From contig JASMDC010000049.1 of the NCBI GenBank assembly GCA_030753015.1, positions 1-26,159 on the forward strand: 26,159 nt of DNA. The letters are read 5' to 3'. Source of the stretch: Candidatus Undinarchaeales archaeon. GTDB lineage: Archaea; SpSt-1190; JASMDC01. This document shows, piece after piece, positions 1,586 through 15,911 of this stretch. The notes under the pieces were generated by a model. The model was not told the origin of the DNA. It worked only from the letters and a program-made list of their open reading frames with translations, and made no database searches. A program made the translations under genes and the position numbers. Each line of letters opens with the position of its first letter. Position 1 is the stretch's first letter.

Positions 1586-1804
1586 ATGGAAGACGAGGTC
1601 AAGAAGATCATCGAGACAGAGATCGCCCCCGCCCTCAAGATGGACGGCGGCAACATCGAGCTCCTCGGCGTCAAGGACGGCGTCGTCAAGGTCAAGCTCC
1701 AGGGCGCCTGCGCAGGGTGCCCCATGAGCCAGATGACCCTGATCAACTTCGTGGAGAAGACCCTCAAGCAGAAGGTCCCCGGTGTCAAGCGCGTCGAAGG
1801 CTGA
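1586..1804 (+). CDS. NifU/Nfu family Fe-S cluster carrier protein
   Basis: IAPALKMDGGNIELL...KLQGACAGCPMSQMTL is the Nfu CxxC signature. GGTGA SD precedes ATG 1586. Confidence 0.93.
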   Translation: MEDEVKKIIETEIAPALKMDGGNIELLGVKDGVVKVKLQGACAGCPMSQMTLINFVEKTLKQKVPGVKRVEG

Positions 1805-1971
1805 AGAGCACCAGGACACGACCACGAGCGCTTGTCGGGTCGCCATCAACGGCGACCCCCGGCAATAGGCAGGTGCCTCTATCGAGATGGACCGAGGTTG
1901 CGCTCCCTGGCGACACCCAAATCTTTTAAAGAGACACGCGGCATGACGTATGAACAAAGGTGGAACGGACC

Positions 1972-3168
1972 ATGATCCCGAACACGCATCACCTGTTCGC
2001 GTTGCTCGCCTGCTGCCTGCTCCTTGCTGGTTGCACCGGCAGCGATTCGCCCGTGGAGGACCCGCGTACCAATGCCAAACCAGTCGGAGCTGACGGTCTC
2101 ATCGCCAGGACAGCGGACATGCCGACCGGAAGCACCCATCACTTCCTTTTCAGGGGGAACACGCCCGCCGTGCTCATCAACGCGAACGGCATGTTCAGAG
2201 CGTACATCAACACCTGCGACCACGAAGGCGGTCCTGTCGTGTTGGATGAGGGAACCCTCGTCTGCCAGTGGCACGAAGCCCAGTTCGATCCGGTCACGGG
2301 TGCCCTGCAGCAGGGACCGGCCACTGGACCCTTGAGCGCCATCCCTGTTACTCTTAAGGATGGCGGCGTGTACCTCACCGAGGCCCTGAAGACTGAGGGG
2401 ACGGTGGTTGCCACACAGATACCCACCACACCTACCGAGGCACCTCCTGCGGCCACACCAGAGCCATCTCCAGCCCGTGCCCCGGGATTCGTTGCGCGTA
2501 CCGGAGACGTGCCCCCCGGGAGTACCTACGAATTCAATCTTGAGGGCAAAGGCGCGATCCTCATCAATTTCAACGGTGAGTATCGGGCCTATATCAACCG
2601 CTGCAACCACGAGGGCGGACCGAACGAACTCAGGGACACAGCCATCGTGTGCAAGTGGCATGACTCCCAGTTCGATCCCAAGACAGGTGCATTGATGAGG
2701 GGGCCGGCCACCGCGCCCCTTGAATCGATCGCGATCGAAGTGCGGGACGGGAGCGTGTTCGTAACGTCTGCAGCAACGGATGCGCCCACGGATGTACCTG
2801 CGCCCACAGAGCCACCAGTCATACCCACGGACGCGCCAGTGATCCCCTCCGAAGCACCGGAGCCGACACCTGCCCCTGCCCCAGGATTCGTAGCGCTTAT
2901 CGACGATGTGCCCCCGGGGAGCACCTACGATTTCAGGTTTGAGGGCAAGCCCGCTATCATCATCAACTTCAACGGACTCTACCGGGCGTACGTCAACAAG
3001 TGCAGTCACCTCGGTGGGCCGAACGAGCTGAGGGACACCGCCATCGTATGCAAGTGGCACGGCGCCCAGTTCGATCCCGAGACCGGTGCCCTCGAGAAAG
3101 GACCTGCGACGGCTCCCCTCGAACAGATCCCGATCACCATCACCGGTGACAGCATCTACGCTCCTTAG
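1972..3168 (+). CDS. Predicted lipoprotein with three tandem Rieske [2Fe-2S] domains
   Basis: Signal peptide with lipobox LAGC. Three CxH-x13-CxWH motifs (CDH/CQWH, CNH/CKWH, CSH/CKWH), each followed by QFDPxTG..GPA..PL. Pro/Thr/Glu-rich linkers. Confidence 0.88.
   Translation: MIPNTHHLFALLACCLLLAGCTGSDSPVEDPRTNAKPVGADGLIARTADMPTGSTHHFLFRGNTPAVLINANGMFRAYINTCDHEGGPVVLDEGTLVCQWHEAQFDPVTGALQQGPATGPLSAIPVTLKDGGVYLTEALKTEGTVVATQIPTTPTEAPPAATPEPSPARAPGFVARTGDVPPGSTYEFNLEGKGAILINFNGEYRAYINRCNHEGGPNELRDTAIVCKWHDSQFDPKTGALMRGPATAPLESIAIEVRDGSVFVTSAATDAPTDVPAPTEPPVIPTDAPVIPSEAPEPTPAPAPGFVALIDDVPPGSTYDFRFEGKPAIIINFNGLYRAYVNKCSHLGGPNELRDTAIVCKWHGAQFDPETGALEKGPATAPLEQIPITITGDSIYAP
2479..3144 (+). repeat. 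Internal tandem duplication (Rieske domains 2 and 3, 399-bp period)
   Basis: gccccgggattcgt (2479) and gccccaggattcgt (2878) start near-identical blocks, e.g. GGPNELRDTAIVCKWH occurs in both. Confidence 0.85.
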
Positions 3169-3177
3169 TATCATGGA

Positions 3178-4923
3178 GTGCCCATCATGGTAGATCCTTC
3201 CGGTGTGCTCCCGCCCATCGAGGTCGGACTGGGATACGCCTTCATGTATGGGCTGTCGAACGCCCTTGGTGCCTGCCTCTACTCCTGCCTACCGGTGTAC
3301 ATGCCGATCATAGTGAGCTACGGCGACAGTCCGGAAAAGGGGTTCAAGCTCTCCCTGGGATTCGCCGCCGGGAGGTTCACGGGCTACTTCCTCCTCGGCA
3401 TCGCCGCGGCCATGCTTGGAGCTGCCTTCATCGACATACTCTCCACCACGTTCCCGCGTATCAGTAATGTCGTGCTCGCGATCCTCGGGTTCGTAACGTT
3501 CCTTTATGGTGCGATCGTGGTCTCCCGGACCGGCCTACCTGCCATTTCGGGACACTACTGTGCGGCCTTCCGGGACCGGACACGGGGGATTGACAATCCC
3601 TACTTGGCGGCCTATCTCCTTGGTCTCACGTCGACGGTCACGCCCTGCGTGCCCATCTTCACCTTCCTCCTCCTGCCCTTCGCCCTGGGACGGGTGTGGG
3701 AGACCGTACCGGTGACCCTCGCCTTCGGTCTCGGCGCAAATATCCCCTTCATCGTCATCGGCGTGGGCCTCGCATTGGGCGTGCAGAACGTCAAGCAACG
3801 GTTCGACACCTGGCGCCCCCGGCTCGAGCTGTTCAGTGGTCTGATGCTCCTCTTGTTCGGCGCGATCTACGTTCTCTGGGCCTTGGGGCCCATCCTCTTC
3901 GGTTGGCAGGTGACCTCCTTCGCCCTCCCCGACGTCCGGGACATCATCGCACTTGTGACCTACATTCCCCCCGCGGTGGCCCAGGGGCAACAATTGTCCC
4001 CATGCCTGCTCGTCCACTCCGTACGAACGCCCGGGGCCGAGCCCTATGTCGGTCGGCCGTTCAACGTGGACGTCGTGGTGTCCAACATCTGCGAGAAGCC
4101 CATTGAGGCAAAGCTCATCCCTTCGCTCCCACCCGGACTGCACACCGGTGCATCATCGCCCATCGTGGCAATCGTCGGGCCCCTGCAATACGCCATGCTC
4201 CGGCTCCCCCTCTGGTCCGACGTGGGGTGGGGCGACATCGTCGATGTCAGCCTTTTACTCGCTGCAAGCGACGATCCTGGCCGGTTCCTACATCTGGTTC
4301 TTCCCGTCGAACTGCGCAATCCATTCCTGGAGATGTCCTTCCTCGCCATCACGATCATACTCATTCTCGGAACGCTGGTCCGGCGCTCCCGGAAGGAGGG
4401 TGAGAACACCATGCTCTCGCATGCTCTGAGGACGATGGGGGTCATCATCGTCGCGGTGGCCCTCCTCTCCCTTGTCAGGAATCCCGTTCTCGGGAACGGG
4501 GGATTCTACGACCTCGAGCTCCTTATGGTGGGGGCCGTCATGGCGTTCTGGTCAGCTGACATAGCCGACCTCTTTCAAGATCACCCGGACATGTTCCTTC
4601 TGGCCACGCTGTTCTTCGTCAGGTTCTACCTCTTCGAGCCCGCCTACGGTCTCGGGACCGGAATGGGACAGCTAGCGGCCACGGCCCGTACCTATGTGAT
4701 GGACCTGTCCGTTGCGCTCGTGGCCTTCTTCCTACCGCCCGTGTTCCACTTCAATGCCCACATGTTGCCATCCAAGATCGCCCCTGTCATTGGCGGGACC
4801 GCTTATCTCTGCTGGTGGCTCATCCTGCTCAAGGCCATCAGGAGGACCGCCAGAGCGAGGGCTCCGGCTGCAGAGGATGCCATCGCTCCACCGGGGCTCA
4901 CCGGCGATGCGGGTGCTGCCTGA
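3178..4923 (+). CDS. DsbD/CcdA-like (DsbD_2 type) membrane protein fused to an Ig-like domain and extra TM helices
   Basis: N-terminal multi-TM domain with ACLYSCLP and TPCVP cysteine motifs. Central FNVDVVVSN...LPPGL beta-sandwich-like segment. C-terminal hydrophobic helices. The start may be ATG 3187. Confidence 0.7.
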   Translation: MPIMVDPSGVLPPIEVGLGYAFMYGLSNALGACLYSCLPVYMPIIVSYGDSPEKGFKLSLGFAAGRFTGYFLLGIAAAMLGAAFIDILSTTFPRISNVVLAILGFVTFLYGAIVVSRTGLPAISGHYCAAFRDRTRGIDNPYLAAYLLGLTSTVTPCVPIFTFLLLPFALGRVWETVPVTLAFGLGANIPFIVIGVGLALGVQNVKQRFDTWRPRLELFSGLMLLLFGAIYVLWALGPILFGWQVTSFALPDVRDIIALVTYIPPAVAQGQQLSPCLLVHSVRTPGAEPYVGRPFNVDVVVSNICEKPIEAKLIPSLPPGLHTGASSPIVAIVGPLQYAMLRLPLWSDVGWGDIVDVSLLLAASDDPGRFLHLVLPVELRNPFLEMSFLAITIILILGTLVRRSRKEGENTMLSHALRTMGVIIVAVALLSLVRNPVLGNGGFYDLELLMVGAVMAFWSADIADLFQDHPDMFLLATLFFVRFYLFEPAYGLGTGMGQLAATARTYVMDLSVALVAFFLPPVFHFNAHMLPSKIAPVIGGTAYLCWWLILLKAIRRTARARAPAAEDAIAPPGLTGDAGAA

Positions 4924-6134
4924 GCGGATCGGACGGACACCGCCGGAGGCGGATCACGCTTTGAACGGGTGCGCCATGCCACGACGGTCCCATCGTCGAG
5001 CCCGGCCATGAGCTCGTCCACGCCATCACCATCGAGGTCGGCACGCATGAGCGCCGTGGCGAGCGCGTGGTCGAGCTTGACCGGACCGCTCTCACTGTCG
5101 ATGAGCGACAGACCGTCGAGCACGGGCACGAGCACCTCGTCGCCCCGGGCATCGGCAACGTCCGCCCCGACGGGACCGCCCAGGACCGCTGCGCCCAGTG
5201 GGACCGACCGGACGACCGCACCCGTGCGGTCCAGTATGATGAGGGTTGTTCCGGACACCGCTGCGATGCGCGCCCCGTCGTCCAGGACCACAGGAGCGTG
5301 GTCCACGTGGCCTTCTGTCGGCGCCCGCCAGAGCACACCTCCGTCACCGTCCAGTGCATGGACCGTGCCGGCCTGGTCACCCACGATAACCTCGGCAAGA
5401 TGATCGCCGTCGAGGTCGAGCAGGAGCGGCGTGCCGGTGATCCACTCTCCGAGCGTCCGACGCCAGCGTAGAGTGCCGTTGCCATCCAGGCAGTAGACGT
5501 TGCCATCCATCGAGCCGACCACCAGCTCGCCAGCACCGTCGCCGTCCACGTCACCCAAGGCGGGCGGTGAGAGGACATCATCCCCGGCCTGGAACGCCCA
5601 TCCGATAGAGCCGTTCGCATCGATCCGGACGAGGAGCCCGCCGTCGTACACCACTATGAGCTCTGGACGACCGTCACCTTCAAGGTCCACGGCCACCGGG
5701 ACCACGGACCCTGAAGAGAAGGGTAGGAGGTTGGTCACGTTGAGATAGCTCGAGCCCATGTCGATGAGGGTCCTGTTCCCGGTCCCGTCGGGACTCACGA
5801 GGGCAAGGGTCCCATCCCGCGTGCCCACGACGATCCCGGGCGTCAACTCATCTCCGAATGCGCTCACGGCCAGCGCAACGGCCCCGCTCCCCTCGAGGGA
5901 CACGTTCGCCGTGACCGTACCCGTGGCACCTGACATCACCACGAGACGCTCACCACGTGTGAGGGCGACCACCTCGACGTCGCCGTCGCCGTCCAGGTCC
6001 GCTATCGCAAGGTCTACGTTCACCTTCCCCCCAAGGTTCGTGCGCCACACGCTGTCGAGATCAAGGCCGACGGAAGTGAGGAGGACGAGGAGCAGGACGA
6101 CCGTCGCCACAGTCGCTGCATGGGAGCGCGTCAC
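4803..6134 (-). CDS. Secreted FG-GAP/PQQ-like beta-propeller repeat protein
   Basis: Signal peptide, repeated Ca-binding DLDGDG/DVDGDG...E motifs, and VYCLDGNGTLRW PQQ-type blades. Confidence 0.85.
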   Translation of the reverse strand: MTRSHAATVATVVLLLVLLTSVGLDLDSVWRTNLGGKVNVDLAIADLDGDGDVEVVALTRGERLVVMSGATGTVTANVSLEGSGAVALAVSAFGDELTPGIVVGTRDGTLALVSPDGTGNRTLIDMGSSYLNVTNLLPFSSGSVVPVAVDLEGDGRPELIVVYDGGLLVRIDANGSIGWAFQAGDDVLSPPALGDVDGDGAGELVVGSMDGNVYCLDGNGTLRWRRTLGEWITGTPLLLDLDGDHLAEVIVGDQAGTVHALDGDGGVLWRAPTEGHVDHAPVVLDDGARIAAVSGTTLIILDRTGAVVRSVPLGAAVLGGPVGADVADARGDEVLVPVLDGLSLIDSESGPVKLDHALATALMRADLDGDGVDELMAGLDDGTVVAWRTRSKRDPPPAVSVRSAQAAPASPVSPGGAMASSAAGALALAVLLMALSRMSHQQR

Positions 6135-6222: not shown

Positions 6223-7233
6223 ATGGCGCGCACCTCCGTCCTCCCCTCCGGGAAGCTCGATCCCCGGCGGCTGCCTGCCCTTGTGTTCGGCGGCCTTGCC
6301 GTGGGCGAGGACGTCGTCGTAGGACCCTCCCTGGGAGAGGATGCTGCGGTGATGCGTCTCGGGGAGGGCTACCTCGTCGCCGCATCCGATCCCATCACGG
6401 GGGCCGAGGGTCCCATCGGTCGGCTATTGGTCCATGTCAACGCCAATGATGTCGCCACCATGGGCGCGCGTCCGCAGTGGTTCCTCCCTGTGGTGCTCCT
6501 TCCCGAGAGTGCCTCGGAGGACGACCTGGTCACCATCATGGACCAGATGTCACGGGCGGCGGAGGAGGTGGGTGCCGTGATCGTCGGCGGCCATACCGAG
6601 GTGACCCCGGGGCTGGACCGACCCCTCGTGAGCGGGTGCATGCTCGGTACCACCGACCACCTGATAACGTCCGGTAGTATCCGGTCGGGGGACGCCCTGG
6701 TCCTCACCAAGGGGGCCGCAATCGAGGGCAGCTGCATCCTTGCCACCGACCGGGCCGCGGAGGTCGAGGCCGCCGTGGGCCTGGAGCTGGCAGAAGAGGC
6801 GCGAGGGTACGCGGACCTCATCTCCATCGTCCCGGAAGCACAGGTCGCTGCACGGGAGAAGTGCACGGCCATGCATGACGTTACCGAGGGCGGTGTGCTC
6901 GGTGCGCTCCACGAACTATGCTCGGCCGGCGGTGTCGGTTTCAGCGTAGAGAGGTCCCGCATCCGCATATCAGAAGCGACCAGTGCGATCTGCGACCACT
7001 TCGGCATCGATCCTCTAAAGACCATCTCGTCCGGCTCGCTCCTCGTGTCGGCATCCCCCGAGCGTGCCGATGCCATCGTTACCGGCATCAGGGCTCTGGG
7101 CGTATGGGCCGACATCATCGGGCGAGCAGTGGACATCGGCGAGGGGGCCGTCATGGTCGATGAGGGAGGGACGGCCCGTGAGGCGCCCTTCCCGCCGCAG
7201 GACCATCTCTGGACGGTCCTCGACGGAGATTGA
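6223..7233 (+). CDS. AIR synthase-related (PurM/HypE/ThiL superfamily) protein
   Basis: GEDAAV, ASDPIT, VNANDVATMGARP, VGGHTEVT, MHDVTEGG and SSGSLL motifs. Confidence 0.88.
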   Translation: MARTSVLPSGKLDPRRLPALVFGGLAVGEDVVVGPSLGEDAAVMRLGEGYLVAASDPITGAEGPIGRLLVHVNANDVATMGARPQWFLPVVLLPESASEDDLVTIMDQMSRAAEEVGAVIVGGHTEVTPGLDRPLVSGCMLGTTDHLITSGSIRSGDALVLTKGAAIEGSCILATDRAAEVEAAVGLELAEEARGYADLISIVPEAQVAAREKCTAMHDVTEGGVLGALHELCSAGGVGFSVERSRIRISEATSAICDHFGIDPLKTISSGSLLVSASPERADAIVTGIRALGVWADIIGRAVDIGEGAVMVDEGGTAREAPFPPQDHLWTVLDGD

Positions 7234-7235
7234 GC

Positions 7236-7811
7236 ATGGTGCGTGCACGTTCCCTCGGGGCACTGGTCGCGGTGCTGTGGTTGACCGCTTTACTGGCGTT
7301 GTCACAGGACGCCGAGGTCGTGATCGCCAATGCTCCCGAGATCCCCGAGTGCGACGCCAAGGCTATCGATGCGGCGCGACAGTTCTGCTACTTCGACGCC
7401 GCCATGGAGCTGTGGCGCACGGACACCAAGGGAGCGCTTGCCATCTGCAACGAGCGCATCACGGACGTGAGCGGACGTGACCTCTGTCGACTCGACGTGG
7501 CCTCCCACCTACTGGGCAAGGACATCGAGATGGTGGCCCGCGTATGCACCACCGACTATATGGGGCGGGAGGACGACTGCTTCAACTGGGTGTGGAACAA
7601 CGCCACCACCGTGCAGGCGGTCCAGCTCTATGCTCGCTGGAAGCCGCTGCGGACCGCTCTCGGAATCACAGTGGCCCTGTTCCTGCTCTTCAAGATATCC
7701 CGGCGTCTCAGCCCCGCTCCCGATCCGTACGCGGAGCAGATGAGGCTACAAGCACAGCAGAGCGGCTACTACGCGCAGAGCTGGCAGATGACCGGCCGGC
7801 GGTACTACTGA
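7236..7811 (+). CDS. Hypothetical single-pass surface protein with six spaced cysteines
   Basis: Signal peptide, C-x11-C-x19-C-x12-C-x19-C-x10-C ectodomain, TM helix and Q/Y-rich tail. Directly follows the upstream stop codon. Confidence 0.65.
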   Translation: MVRARSLGALVAVLWLTALLALSQDAEVVIANAPEIPECDAKAIDAARQFCYFDAAMELWRTDTKGALAICNERITDVSGRDLCRLDVASHLLGKDIEMVARVCTTDYMGREDDCFNWVWNNATTVQAVQLYARWKPLRTALGITVALFLLFKISRRLSPAPDPYAEQMRLQAQQSGYYAQSWQMTGRRYY

Positions 7812-7966
7812 GCCTTGTCCTCGTCCGAGTACTCGTTGTCCGAGTCGTTGGTGAGGCGCTCCTCGGCCACAGCGATGGAAGACCACTTGAGCATGTCCAC
7901 TACGGTCTTGCGCACGAGTTTTGTCATCTCACGTCCCTTGAGGGCGATCCCGTCAGGTTCGGTCAT
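7805..7966 (-). CDS. Small hypothetical protein (53 aa) downstream of aRF1
   Basis: ATG lies 2 nt after the aRF1 stop, preceded by GAGGTG SD. Sequence MTEPDGIALKGREMTKLVRK..., acidic tail. Confidence 0.5.
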   Translation of the reverse strand: MTEPDGIALKGREMTKLVRKTVVDMLKWSSIAVAEERLTNDSDNEYSDEDKAQ

Positions 7967-7968
7967 GG

Positions 7969-9201
7969 TCACACCTCGTACCGCAGGATGGCGGCGATGC
8001 CGCCAAGCTCGTACAGCTGCACACCCTCGGACGTGTCCGTGGAGATAATCTCCAGTGTACCGCCCGTCGCCTCGGCCAGGTCGGTCATGTCCTCGACGAG
8101 CGTGACCTCCTCGATCTTCGCCAGACGAGAGGCGTCGCACTTGGGGCAGTTCTGGCTCGCGAGCTTCTCATCGAAGGCCTTGGGGTCCTTGACCGTTCCC
8201 TTGTAGTTGAACTTGCAGAGGCCGCACTCGACGGTCACCCGGTTCCACTGCAATTTCTCGGAGAAGAGCACGATCTCGACCGCCTTCGCCTCGAGCGCAC
8301 GCCGGACCTCGGCCTCGCCGTAGGTGACCGGCTGGCCCGTTCCCAGTCGCTCGAGGAACCGATACATCAGGTGCTTCTCATGGGTGACCTCAGCCTCGGC
8401 GAGCACGTCCTCGCTGCGCTCGACCAGCTCCTTGATACCGAAATCGCCGGTGTAGGATGTGTCCTTGACAGCGAGCACCTTCGTCCTGACCTCCGGACTG
8501 AGGAAATCACCGTCCATCCAACTCTCCTTCGTCGGTCCGGGCCCACCGATGATGATCCCCTTGATGTCCTTGATGTTGGCGAACACCTCGTTGGCCGCCA
8601 CTCCCACGCGCTTGTAGAAGTCTTTGGCGAGGCCCTCGCGGGCGCGCTCGAAGCGGGCAGCGGACTGACCGCCGGCCCGGAACTTGCCCGGGACCATGGA
8701 CTTCACGTCGCGGATGATATCGATACGCTTGCCTTTGAGGAACGCGATGGTGGCCCCGCCACGGTCGAGGACCAGGAGGCCGTAGGTGTCCATGAACTGG
8801 AGCATCTCGAACAGTGGCGCAAGGATGAAACGCTGGCTGCACCGGTAGAGCTTGTTGGTGATGGGGAAGGGTGGGATCACGGGGAAGAGCTGGATGTCCT
8901 GCATCCCCTCGCGTTCGGAGATGTTGCCGCAGAACACTGCCATCCCATGCTCGGGCGCCCTCGGATGGAGCCTGAGATGCTGGACGATGCGCTCCAAGGC
9001 GGACACCACGTTCTTGCGCGTGGTCTTCGACTTGATGTTCGTGGCAGTCCCCTGCTCCTGCTTCAGTTCGTTGGAGATCTTGGATATCTCGTACCCTGGC
9101 GGGATGTACACAGTCACGAGCTCGGTGCCCCTGCCGTGCATGTCCTTGAGCTTGTTGAGCACAGCACGGAACCGCAGAAGCTCCTTCTGATCGACCTTGA
9201 T
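7969..9201 (-). CDS. prf1: Peptide chain release factor aRF1
   Basis: GRGTELV, NIKS, YRCxxxF and GGQS motifs, plus a CGLC...CPKC zinc mini-domain and GGIAAILRY. The frame stays open and aRF1-like upstream of GTG 9162 to an ATC at 9201 with a GGAGGG SD; the start position is an inference. Confidence 0.97.
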   Translation of the reverse strand: MKVDQKELLRFRAVLNKLKDMHGRGTELVTVYIPPGYEISKISNELKQEQGTATNIKSKTTRKNVVSALERIVQHLRLHPRAPEHGMAVFCGNISEREGMQDIQLFPVIPPFPITNKLYRCSQRFILAPLFEMLQFMDTYGLLVLDRGGATIAFLKGKRIDIIRDVKSMVPGKFRAGGQSAARFERAREGLAKDFYKRVGVAANEVFANIKDIKGIIIGGPGPTKESWMDGDFLSPEVRTKVLAVKDTSYTGDFGIKELVERSEDVLAEAEVTHEKHLMYRFLERLGTGQPVTYGEAEVRRALEAKAVEIVLFSEKLQWNRVTVECGLCKFNYKGTVKDPKAFDEKLASQNCPKCDASRLAKIEEVTLVEDMTDLAEATGGTLEIISTDTSEGVQLYELGGIAAILRYEV

Positions 9202-13810: not shown

Positions 13811-15911
13811 CCCACCTTCTCCAATCTAACTCCTGACGACCTTGCTCGCGCCACGTAACTGATCGTGTAATAGCTCCCCCGCTACTGATTTCCCTCTGGA
13901 GTTTGTGGAATCCCCCCCAATAGTTTCCGTCCCGACTTTTTCAAAAAGAGAACACTTAAATAAGATAACTAGATAACATTCATTGGGTGCTCAGAACGTC
14001 CCGACCAAGATCGAAGCTCAACTGGTTTCTCAAGAAGCAGACCCGAACGAAGAAGGGCGACACGCGATACGACTACTACAGCATCGTCGAGCCATACTAC
14101 GAGGACGGGAAGAATAAGCACAGGGTAGTATTCCGGCTCGGGCGATTGATGCCTCAGCAGGCACTTCTCGTCAGGAGCCTGCTCAATGCTGCGAAATCCG
14201 GGGATGACGTGCTCTGTCTGAACATCAAGGACATACTTTTCGAGGACCACTGGAGGTATCTGGACGTCGCCTTCCTCAACCACCTCTGGGACGAGTGGGG
14301 GCTATCGAAGGTGTTCCCGTCGCCCGAGGAAACGAGCAGCAGGAGGGGGAAGGACATCGCGACCGCCGACGTCGCGAAGGCACTGACCTTCTACCGGTGC
14401 CTGGAGCCGGGGAGCTACCTCTCGTCGGCGGGGTGGTTCGAGGGGACGGCATGCGACCGCATCCTCGGCATAGACGGCTCACACTTCAACGACTCCAGGG
14501 TGTACCGGGAGCTGACGGTGATCGACGGGCTCAAGGAGAAGCTGGAGACGTACCTCTACACCACGCTGAGGGACAGGGACGAGGAGAGCTTCAAGGTAAT
14601 CTTCTACGACCTTTCCGACTCGTACTTCGAGGGGACCAAGTGCAAGCTCGCGAAACCGGGGATCACCAAGGCCAACGGCTTCAAGAGCAGGAAGATCGTC
14701 CTCTCCCTCCTCGTCAACTCGATGGGCTACCCCTTCTCGTGGGAGATCCTCCAAGACTACACCTCGGACGTCAAGACGCTCACGGCCAACGCTGACCGGT
14801 GGAAGCAACGGTTCGATCTCCCAAAGATCATCTCGGTGTTCGATCGCGGGATGGTGTCCGACGAGAACCTCAAGCACCTGGAGGAGAGCGAAACCTACCT
14901 GTACATCACCGCCCTCGACAAGGACCAGGTCGCCGGCGTGCCCGGCGTCCGTCTGGACCGGTTCAAGGACCTCACTGTGGAGAATGTCGAGAAGAAGGTC
15001 GGCCGCTCACGGTTCCTCACCAAGTACGACGACTGTGCGTACTACGAGGATCTTGGTACGGCCGAAGGATCGGTCAGGCGTCACATCCTGGGGTTCAACC
15101 CCGAGCTCTTCAAGGACCAGAGGAAGCAGCGCGAGGAGCAGATCAAGAAGGCACTGGACTGCCTGAAGGAGGAAGGGGCGGCGCTGCTGAAGGCGAAGAA
15201 GAGCAGACAGAAGAAGCCGACTGAGCAACGGATCGACCGCAAGCTCAAGAAACTGAACGTGACGCGCTTCATCGGCTACGAGCTCAAGGAAATTGAGCTG
15301 GAGAGCGGGGTGCGGACCTTCGAGCTCAGCTACCGGAAGAAGACAAAGGCGATCGAGAAGGCCAAGTTGACCGACGGCCTCTGGGTACTCGTCACCAGCA
15401 TAACCGCGGATACGCAGCCGAGGGAGTTCAGGCTCGGGCCGGAGGAGATCATCAGGGCCTACCGCGACAAGAACCGCGTGGAGGAGGCGTTCAGGGAGCT
15501 GAAGTCGTTCATCAAGTTCAAGCCGACGTTCGTCTACACAATGGAGCACGTCAGGGCCCATTACACCATCTGCATACTCGCGTATCTCTTGGACGTGACG
15601 GTCACCAACAGGCTGCGCGAGGGCCCGATAGAGGGCATGACCAGTGTGAGGAAGGTGTACAAGCTCCTGGAGCGGATCAGATTGGGAGAGCTGAAACTTC
15701 GGGGCATGGATCGAACGGTGAGAAGGATCGTCACCCCGAGACCGATCGAAAAGGACGTGCTGAGATCATTCGGTTGTGAACACTTGCTGAAGAAGACGTA
15801 TCTTCGGTCGATACAGACCGACTGAGCGGTGAGAACGTGGTTTCAGTCCCGATATTTGAGAGGGGGTTCGTCTCCGTACCACCTTTTCGAGTTTAGACTG
15901 GAGAAGATGGG
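13811..15911 (+). mobile_element. Complete IS1634-family insertion sequence (2101 bp)
   Basis: TIRs 13811-13829 and 15893-15911 match at 17/19 positions. 6-bp direct repeat ATTAAA at 13805-13810 and 15912-15917. Single transposase ORF. Confidence 0.92.
13987..15825 (+). CDS. IS1634 family DDE transposase
   Basis: YDLSDSYFEG, FDRGMVS and VEEAFRELKS catalytic segments; HVRAHYTICILAY; N-terminal YYSIVEPYYEDGK. Confidence 0.92.
   Translation: MLRTSRPRSKLNWFLKKQTRTKKGDTRYDYYSIVEPYYEDGKNKHRVVFRLGRLMPQQALLVRSLLNAAKSGDDVLCLNIKDILFEDHWRYLDVAFLNHLWDEWGLSKVFPSPEETSSRRGKDIATADVAKALTFYRCLEPGSYLSSAGWFEGTACDRILGIDGSHFNDSRVYRELTVIDGLKEKLETYLYTTLRDRDEESFKVIFYDLSDSYFEGTKCKLAKPGITKANGFKSRKIVLSLLVNSMGYPFSWEILQDYTSDVKTLTANADRWKQRFDLPKIISVFDRGMVSDENLKHLEESETYLYITALDKDQVAGVPGVRLDRFKDLTVENVEKKVGRSRFLTKYDDCAYYEDLGTAEGSVRRHILGFNPELFKDQRKQREEQIKKALDCLKEEGAALLKAKKSRQKKPTEQRIDRKLKKLNVTRFIGYELKEIELESGVRTFELSYRKKTKAIEKAKLTDGLWVLVTSITADTQPREFRLGPEEIIRAYRDKNRVEEAFRELKSFIKFKPTFVYTMEHVRAHYTICILAYLLDVTVTNRLREGPIEGMTSVRKVYKLLERIRLGELKLRGMDRTVRRIVTPRPIEKDVLRSFGCEHLLKKTYLRSIQTD

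Follow-up and report, generated by a model that had tools for sequence, protein, structure and literature searches.

A gene pair for a Rieske lipoprotein and a four-cysteine DsbD_2/CcdA-like membrane protein, shared by a Candidatus Undinarchaeales archaeon and members of a second archaeal phylum

Described bacterial systems of the CcdA/DsbD type include CcdA-ResA, DsbD with its alpha, beta and gamma domains, and CcdA-Etrx-MsrAB. Chloroplasts contain a relay in which HCF164 receives reductant from CcdA and interacts with the Rieske protein (PMC3813922). According to a 2026 review, Rieske proteins anchored in the membranes of bacteria, plastids and streptomycetes are substrates of the twin-arginine translocation (Tat) system, which is replaced by Bcs1 in mitochondria, and the use of Tat and Bcs1 by exported Rieske proteins is explained by the insertion of the cluster before transport (PMC13673990). 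Here we describe a 26,159-nucleotide stretch of DNA from a Candidatus Undinarchaeales archaeon (hereafter the window, contig C61 of genome G000), which encodes a lipoprotein with three Rieske domains and, directly downstream, a DsbD_2/CcdA-like membrane protein.

Among described systems, the locus most closely resembles the CcdA-HCF164-Rieske link of chloroplasts. As in that relay, which is required for cytochrome b6f assembly, a CcdA-type carrier is here proposed to move reductant across a membrane toward a Rieske protein. The chloroplast Rieske protein, however, belongs to a bc-type complex and is a Tat substrate, and the acceptor is a thioredoxin-like protein of its own, whereas the window encodes a Rieske lipoprotein with a Sec-type signal outside any bc complex, a carrier with four cysteines (Cys) and no thioredoxin-like gene in the operon. 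With the bacterial CcdA/DsbD systems the locus shares the PF02683/PF13386 core with Cys in helices 1 and 4, as well as a thioredoxin reductase gene upstream in relatives. It differs from these systems in a score far below the one curated for DsbD (16 vs 330 bits), in having four rather than two core Cys and in its client, which appears to be a Rieske lipoprotein. The putatively outward-facing Ig-like domain with a Cys pair formally resembles DsbD alpha, but is located C-terminally, shows no detected similarity to it and is followed by extra helices. Like the Tat-exported Rieske proteins (bc1/b6f, the small subunit of arsenite oxidase and actinobacterial QcrA), the window protein is predicted to carry a membrane-anchored Rieske domain outside the cytoplasm; unlike these, the subfamily has a lipobox signal without a twin-arginine (RR) motif. 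No description of a Rieske-lipoprotein/DsbD_2 pair was found in literature searches of titles and abstracts.

Conservation of the pair and the Rieske lipoprotein

An earlier note on this DNA had described three co-oriented genes encoding a NifU protein, a triple-Rieske lipoprotein and a DsbD-like protein, and all three are present on the + strand (Table 1). The conserved unit consists of the last two genes only, encoding the Rieske lipoprotein and the four-Cys DsbD_2 protein. One genome per species was scanned with an alignment of seven Rieske domains as query, which yielded 324 confirmed relatives; the best 80 loci were kept, and open reading frames (ORFs) in flanks of at most 6 kb, reduced where the contigs were short, were searched with hidden Markov models (HMMs). 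Loci are numbered with L, homologous proteins with P and contigs of G000 with C. A DsbD_2 gene was present in the flanks of two of these 80 loci, which belong to the two closest homologues (the congener genome G001, 3.6 Mb, and L034), and in none of the other 78. The congener carries the same pair, with two domains in its Rieske gene. Locus L034, from a Candidatus Altiarchaeota archaeon, encodes a 53% identical lipobox protein of 180 amino acids (aa) with a Pro/Thr linker and a single Rieske domain, directly followed by a stand-alone DsbD_2 gene. When the L034 lipoprotein served as query, 86 candidates yielded no homologue other than the query. The pair in L034 is followed by a gene for an ArsP_1-family permease (7227-8372, +) with a Cys-rich N-terminal stretch, which we take to be TRASH/YHS-like.

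L034 represents a second phylum, of which 61 genomes were scanned and six further loci (L121-L126) were retrieved. The Rieske subfamily, comprising 11 lipoproteins (the window protein, P0005-P0007 and those of L034 and L121-L126), is carried by seven of these genomes, five of which (L034, L121, L122, L125 and L126) encode a DsbD_2 orthologue directly downstream (47-51% identity, HMM E-values of 1e-47 to 1e-51). Of the module that the earlier note had proposed, the adjacency of the Rieske lipoprotein and DsbD_2/CcdA-like genes is conserved in the congener and in five of seven second-phylum genomes with the subfamily. Chance does not account for this adjacency, which is found in independent lineages and at none of the 78 control Rieske loci.

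The two genes are probably co-transcribed. Metatranscriptome contigs with 100% identity to the window, from two libraries of one study, cover the NifU gene (1526-1819), pieces of the Rieske gene between 2382 and 2984, the Rieske/DsbD_2 junction (3100-3251, one contig) and parts of the DsbD_2 gene (3539-3677 and 4404-4788). These contigs are assembled and may include DNA carry-over, and a contig spanning two genes is no proof of a single transcript. The spacer between the NifU and Rieske genes is not covered by RNA-library contigs, a gap that proves nothing.

The Rieske lipoprotein matches PF00355 in three stretches with 141.4 bits (cut-off 20.3), and its single domains score 49-51 bits each. 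Its true start is likely the ATG at 1972, giving the 398-aa form on record. Close homologues form four clusters among 5.8 billion proteins, namely the window protein itself and three two-domain forms of 293-297 aa with 56-69% identity. Given the high identity of domain 2 to domain 3 and of domain 1 to domain 1 of P0005 (Table 1), the third domain is best explained by a duplication of the second domain type; domain 3 shares 66-69% identity with the second domain in G001 and P0005 and 62% with that in P0007. A quick tree, built from 113 columns and with 41 of its 96 forks open, leaves the order of events unsettled. In some second-phylum members, the Rieske lipoprotein has extra N-terminal surface domains, consisting of two Lipoprotein_15 (PF03640) repeats in L122, L124 and L126 and of DUF7282 in L123.

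Each of the three window domains contains the CxH...CxxH ligand boxes. These are invariant in all intact domains, across two phyla and identities of 39-93%, and the alignment positions C48, H50, C64, H67, G81, P82, A83 and P86 (ligand boxes and GPA..P loop) do not vary. By sequence, the window domains are putative [2Fe-2S] cluster binders. The window domains lack Cys other than the ligands and represent the type without the extra disulfide pair; the thiols of the mature lipoprotein are those of the lipid-anchor Cys and of two cluster ligands per domain, with none besides. The Rieske domains of L124-L126 carry an additional Cys pair (CxHxxC...CxCH), presumably the pattern of high-potential exported Rieske proteins.

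In all 11 subfamily N-termini, a short N-region is followed by a hydrophobic core and a lipobox, and none has RR or KR beside the core. The long ORF of L124 contains an Arg-rich stretch some 90 residues before the core, which is read as a sign of over-extension. The N-terminus of the window protein, MIPNTHHLFALLACCLLLAGC, ends in the lipobox and contains no RR; its short N-region is followed by HHLFALLACCLLLAGC, the hydrophobic core up to the lipobox. The lipobox LLAGC (residues 21-25) fits the pattern [LVI][ASTVI][GAS]C, lipid modification itself being a prediction, and ORFs with an LLAGC/LAGC lipobox are numerous in G000. As the lipobox is present and the twin-arginine motif absent, the Sec/lipoprotein route is the expected export pathway.

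The DsbD_2/CcdA-like protein and a proposed thiol-redox function

The core of the DsbD_2 protein (residues 21-227) matches PF13386 with 58.4 bits (cut-off 24.9) and PF02683 with 35.5 bits (cut-off 27.1). Its four Cys (C33, C37, C128 and C157) are kept in 85, 79, 75 and 86 of 87 aligned family members, respectively. The near-invariant C37-L-P39 and P156-C157 correspond to the classical CcdA pair, in which a Cys stands beside a Pro in helices 1 and 4, and C33 and C128 are additional. An AlphaFold2 model from a 60-row alignment (mean predicted local distance difference test score, pLDDT, of 71.5) shows a confidently modelled helical core at residues 14-241 (pLDDT per block mostly 80-95), a beta-sandwich (about 60-88) and poorly modelled helices at residues 382-559.

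Close homologues of the 581-aa protein form four clusters with 72-100% identity, and an exhaustive profile-free search returned 104 matches at E <= 0.001. Two stand-alone proteins correspond to its parts: P0014, a DsbD_2 protein of 255 aa with 53% identity to residues 19-263, and P0016, a 327-aa protein with 38% identity to residues 258-577, which starts with a signal peptide of its own and keeps both sandwich Cys. The 581-aa protein is therefore regarded as a fusion of two modules, and the signal peptide of P0016 places the sandwich domain outside the membrane; in the window protein, the Ig-like sandwich is accordingly predicted to face outward. Foldseek matched the beta-sandwich to generic macroglobulin/Ig-like domains only, with nothing at E <= 0.001, and the top rows for the whole protein, a bacterial toxin, were rejected as spurious (root-mean-square deviation of about 20 Å). 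In Pfam, neither a match for the C-terminal module nor a family for the Ig-like domain was found. For the C-terminal module, the ESM Atlas gave leads below 0.9 only, to Ig-like families; a metagenome scan gave 39 pattern matches, none of which was confirmed, and the module was not found at any of the six further second-phylum loci (L121-L126).

A pyridine-nucleotide-disulfide flavoprotein of about 305 aa is encoded upstream of the Rieske gene in L121, L122, L123, L124 and L126, either directly or with a desulfoferrodoxin gene between, and 2.1 kb from it in L125. All six flavoproteins contain a CxxC motif (YCATCDG, YCALCDG or YCSICDG), presumably the redox site of thioredoxin reductase; five are full-length (about 305-327 aa) and one is cut by a contig end. 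Furthermore, the operons of these relatives encode desulfoferrodoxin (L121, L122 and L123), flavodiiron protein (L123, L124 and L126), glutaredoxin (L123 and L124), rubrerythrin (L121 and L124) and ferritin (L123), a company that points to a role in oxygen stress. That the upstream flavoprotein might be a ferredoxin reductase serving a Rieske ferredoxin on the cytoplasmic side was rejected in view of the CxxC in all six proteins and the size of the five full-length ones; the flanking charges and the fused surface domains also point outward.

G000 encodes six Rieske domains in four proteins, all of which have a Sec-type signal peptide without RR and three of which have a lipobox; no Rieske proteins were found in this genome beyond the window protein and those on contigs C31, C34 and C38. 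The C31 protein (L014 4684-5730, -) combines a lipobox, a Pro/Thr linker of roughly 100 aa, one Rieske domain and a C-terminal thioredoxin domain with WCPTC. A gene for a PMT_2-like membrane glycosyltransferase (L014 5808-7562), which could glycosylate this linker, lies 78 nt upstream. The C34 protein (L015 5039-6412, -) consists of a lipobox, a Rieske-like domain without both His ligands and an FGE-sulfatase (formylglycine-generating-enzyme-like) domain; on the same contig, a paralogous four-Cys DsbD_2 gene adjoins one for a membrane-anchored thioredoxin. The C38 protein (L016 6620-10627, +) is a Cys-rich surface protein of 1335 aa with a signal peptide and an intact N-terminal Rieske domain, for which Pfam gave nothing at E <= 0.01 over its whole length. 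It adjoins a giant Cys-rich surface protein of 2108 aa (L016 230-6556, +).

In partial support of the earlier note, a thiol-redox link of the pair is indicated by the thioredoxin reductase upstream in relatives and by the paralogue that fuses Rieske and thioredoxin domains. Together with the CcdA-like motifs, these features point to the export of reductant. We propose that the two-gene operon constitutes a functional unit, a thioredoxin-fed module outside the cytoplasm that would keep surface Rieske centres reduced and be linked to oxygen-stress defence; the case for this reading is evenly balanced. The product of the first gene would be held at the surface by a lipid anchor, carry Rieske domains of the [2Fe-2S] type (three in the window protein, after domain duplication) and exit via the Sec/lipoprotein route. 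The second gene encodes a four-Cys DsbD_2/CcdA-type membrane protein, which would accept reducing equivalents from the thioredoxin system of the cytoplasm and pass them on to the outer face; in the genus, its core is fused to an extra membrane module and to a putatively outward-facing Ig-like domain in which a Cys pair is conserved. The reductant would keep the Rieske ligand thiols reduced or return them to that state, and the centres could thereby be loaded, kept or repaired outside the cytoplasm. Apart from the lipid anchor, the mature lipoprotein has no thiols except those of the ligands, which would therefore be the likeliest client. In an anaerobe, such upkeep of the Rieske centres would contribute to the defence against oxygen stress. 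The direction of electron flow, the ligand thiols as client, the occupancy of the clusters and the stress role are what we infer here. If correct, the pair offers a candidate client for the large, uncharacterised four-Cys DsbD_2 family.

Several points weigh against this proposal. A one-electron Rieske centre is no classical client of a two-electron dithiol carrier. DsbD proper (PRK00293, NCBIfam) scores 16.1 bits against a curated cut-off of 330, and the gamma thioredoxin domain is lacking. The nearest curated families of the DsbD_2 protein are efflux permeases (ArsG, 26 vs 200 bits; RcnA-type, 26.7 vs 195), and its four conserved membrane Cys, which differ from the two-Cys CcdA pattern, could bind a metal. 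The 581-aa protein had no matches in a PDB sequence search and none among solved structures by fold at E <= 0.001. Coupling of the two genes is not obligatory, as L123 and L124 encode the Rieske lipoprotein without an adjacent DsbD_2 gene, and a search with one query found no DsbD_2 orthologue elsewhere in these two genomes, the completeness of which is unknown. No thioredoxin reductase or oxygen-stress genes were found among the 17 further window ORFs scanned. Moreover, the Rieske fold can serve without a cluster, as the loss of both His ligands in the C34 protein indicates. A complex prediction of the DsbD_2 and Ig-like parts (residues 1-385) with Rieske domain 3 gave a score of 0.00, controls not being run, and speaks neither for nor against the proposal.

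The earlier note had also read the locus as a surface electron conduit, for which nothing was found in support. The operon encodes no membrane electron donor besides the dithiol carrier, the locus contains neither a cytochrome nor a quinol oxidase, and a haem-copper oxidase was not found in a search of G000.

Export, cluster loading and other explanations

The missing Tat motif makes the extracytoplasmic maturation of a metal centre, which the earlier note had raised, a real question. To our knowledge, every described Rieske protein outside the cytoplasm crosses the membrane folded and with its cluster, via Tat in prokaryotes and plastids and via Bcs1 in mitochondria. The Rieske centres of the window protein might instead be loaded or repaired outside the membrane, the apo-protein being exported via Sec and the DsbD_2 protein supplying reductant, or even the cluster or its iron; we regard this as doubtful. 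If true, this would be the first case of Fe-S maturation outside the cytoplasm, and the rule of folded crossing via Tat or Bcs1 would have an exception. The occurrence of a conserved family of Sec-type Rieske lipoproteins with a CcdA-like carrier in oxygen-defence operons of anaerobes would mean either that Fe-S centres can be assembled or repaired outside the cell or that the Rieske fold has a thiol or metal function at the surface that has gone unrecognised. As only two small genes are involved, the question is testable.

Alternatively, export could be ordinary. The Rieske lipoprotein would be folded and loaded in the cytoplasm, cross via Tat with a non-canonical signal or by piggy-backing and act as a surface electron carrier, with the DsbD_2 protein confined to disulfide housekeeping. 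TatC is encoded in G000 and in two of five pair-bearing second-phylum genomes, and the additional Cys pair that marks high-potential exported Rieske proteins is present in some members. In the quick tree, which is poorly resolved, four Tat-signal Rieske proteins are among the nearest relatives: 18 Sec-lipobox domains group with these four (SH-aLRT, the approximate likelihood-ratio branch test, of 86), the Tat label being assigned by a crude regular expression that mislabels several over-extended ORFs. Within the set of 80 loci, six exported Rieske proteins outside the subfamily (L035, L036, L067, L069, L088 and L106) carry RR, as do ORFs at three of eight loci from relatives of G000 (L004, L007 and L011). 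The complete lack of RR or KR beside the core in the subfamily speaks against Tat export all the more as G000 encodes a canonical RR-plus-lipobox protein elsewhere. Furthermore, TatC was not found in the other three pair-bearing second-phylum genomes, whose completeness is unknown, the operon contains no partner with a Tat signal, and an electron donor is lacking in the locus, as noted above. Export by this route is therefore considered improbable.

The DsbD_2 protein could also be a transporter of the LysE/ArsG type, moving a metal or metalloid that binds thiols, such as Fe2+, Ni or As(III), which the Rieske lipoprotein would bind or oxidise at the surface. This would be in line with the efflux permeases as best curated matches, the ArsP_1 permease following the pair in L034 and the conservation of the four-Cys pattern across the family. 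The curated transporter matches all remain far below their cut-offs, however, and an ArsP neighbour occurs in only one of seven loci, whereas a CxxC thioredoxin reductase is adjacent, or separated by desulfoferrodoxin only, in five of six. Thioredoxin partners or fusions in paralogues, PF02683 and PF13386 matches above cut-off and the P-C motifs in place likewise disfavour a transporter, which we hold to be an unlikely identity of the protein.

According to the earlier note, NifU might belong to the module. In that case, the cytoplasmic protein would give clusters, or iron and sulfur, to the DsbD_2 protein for export and loading of the surface Rieske domains, in a dedicated Fe-S maturation pathway outside the cytoplasm. 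NifU is co-oriented with and adjacent to the Rieske gene in both genomes of the genus, one of the two NifU genes of G000 (the second is located on contig C62) could be specialised, the four conserved membrane-core Cys could hold a cluster, and a Sec-exported Rieske protein needs an external loading route. Among the best 80 loci, however, NifU is found near the Rieske gene in the congener only, and it is absent at L034 and at the six further second-phylum loci. The TATA-like box within the 155-167-nt spacer between the two genes suggests a promoter of its own for the Rieske gene. In addition, the gene order shared with the congener (T2SSF, NifU, two-domain Rieske, 581-aa DsbD_2, FG-GAP propeller, AIR-synthase-like and aRF1) includes genes unrelated to the pair and is genus-level synteny with little functional information. 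NifU is thus probably a genus-level neighbour, and its membership in the module is considered unlikely.

Least probable is that the surface Rieske-fold domains hold no cluster and serve as structural or binding modules or for a single metal ion: the C34 paralogue has been kept despite the loss of both His ligands and is fused to an FGE-sulfatase domain, and the fold occurs in varied surface architectures (Lipoprotein_15 and DUF7282 fusions, the 1335-aa Cys-rich protein), but each of the remaining domains, in both phyla and at identities down to about 40%, has kept all four ligands, which argues for selection on the metal site.

Genomic setting of the locus

The features of the locus are compiled in Table 1.

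Table 1. Features identified between positions 1586 and 4923 of the window
Feature	Coordinates	Strand	Basis and remarks
NifU/Nfu-type Fe-S carrier domain protein, 72 aa	1586..1804	+	PF01106 E 2.1e-29, 101.9 bits (cut-off 27); CAGC motif
TATA-like box TTTTAAAG in the NifU-Rieske spacer	1923..1930	+	Read from sequence; GGTGG at 1960-1964, ATG at 1972
Rieske lipoprotein, three Rieske domains on Pro/Thr-rich linkers	1960..3168	+	402 aa from GTG; PF00355 E 8.5e-42, 3 stretches
Sec-type signal peptide to lipobox cysteine C25 (counted from GTG), predicted	1960..2034	+	Sequence
Rieske domain 1 (CDH...CQWH)	2101..2340	+	PF00355 E 1.7e-12; 93% identity to P0005 domain 1
Rieske domain 2 (CNH...CKWH), extra relative to two-domain orthologues	2488..2727	+	PF00355 E 5.8e-13; 70% identity to domain 3
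Rieske domain 3 (CSH...CKWH)	2890..3132	+	PF00355 E 3.8e-13
Fusion of four-cysteine DsbD_2/CcdA-type core, beta-sandwich and C-terminal helical membrane module	3178..4923	+	581 aa, 9 nt past the Rieske stop
DsbD_2 core, residues 21-227	3238..3858	+	PF13386 and PF02683 above cut-off; C33-x3-C37-L-P in helix 1, C128, P156-C157 in helix 4
Ig-like beta-sandwich, residues 277-376	4006..4305	+	AlphaFold2 strands; conserved Cys at 305 and at 276, the residue that precedes the first modelled strand
C-terminal module, about 5-7 helices, no family assignment	4321..4854	+	AlphaFold2 pLDDT 40-77

The assembly of G000 comprises 3.85 Mb in 117 contigs (98.9% complete, 5% contamination) and encodes desulfoferrodoxin in addition to TatC. 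Its phylum is represented by 17 genomes in the genome set, and all 15 besides G000 and the congener have sizes of 0.6-1.2 Mb. The congener is titled Candidatus Undinarchaeota archaeon (L033), and the host of a close homologue is labelled Methanopyri archaeon by one source. Either G000 is a large-genome outlier in its phylum or its phylum placement is unsettled. DNA near-identical to the window was present in marine or seawater metagenomes of 10 studies.

Upstream of the NifU gene, a 74-aa ORF (1181-1405, -) represents a remnant of a GT87-type membrane glycosyltransferase of 469 aa, which is intact in the congener (L013 5901-7310). The remnant keeps the first ~27 and the last ~46 residues in frame, and a DNA contig from the run of another sample spans the stretch without differences. 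Downstream, a gene for an FG-GAP/beta-propeller surface protein (4803-6134, -), which is kept in the congener, is convergent with the DsbD_2 gene, the 3' end of which it overlaps by 121 nt. Farther along the window, a 612-aa ORF (13987-15825, +) shows a weak match to a DDE transposase (PF01609, E 2.9e-5), and the G+C content around it is lower (0.55-0.59) than elsewhere (0.60-0.68).

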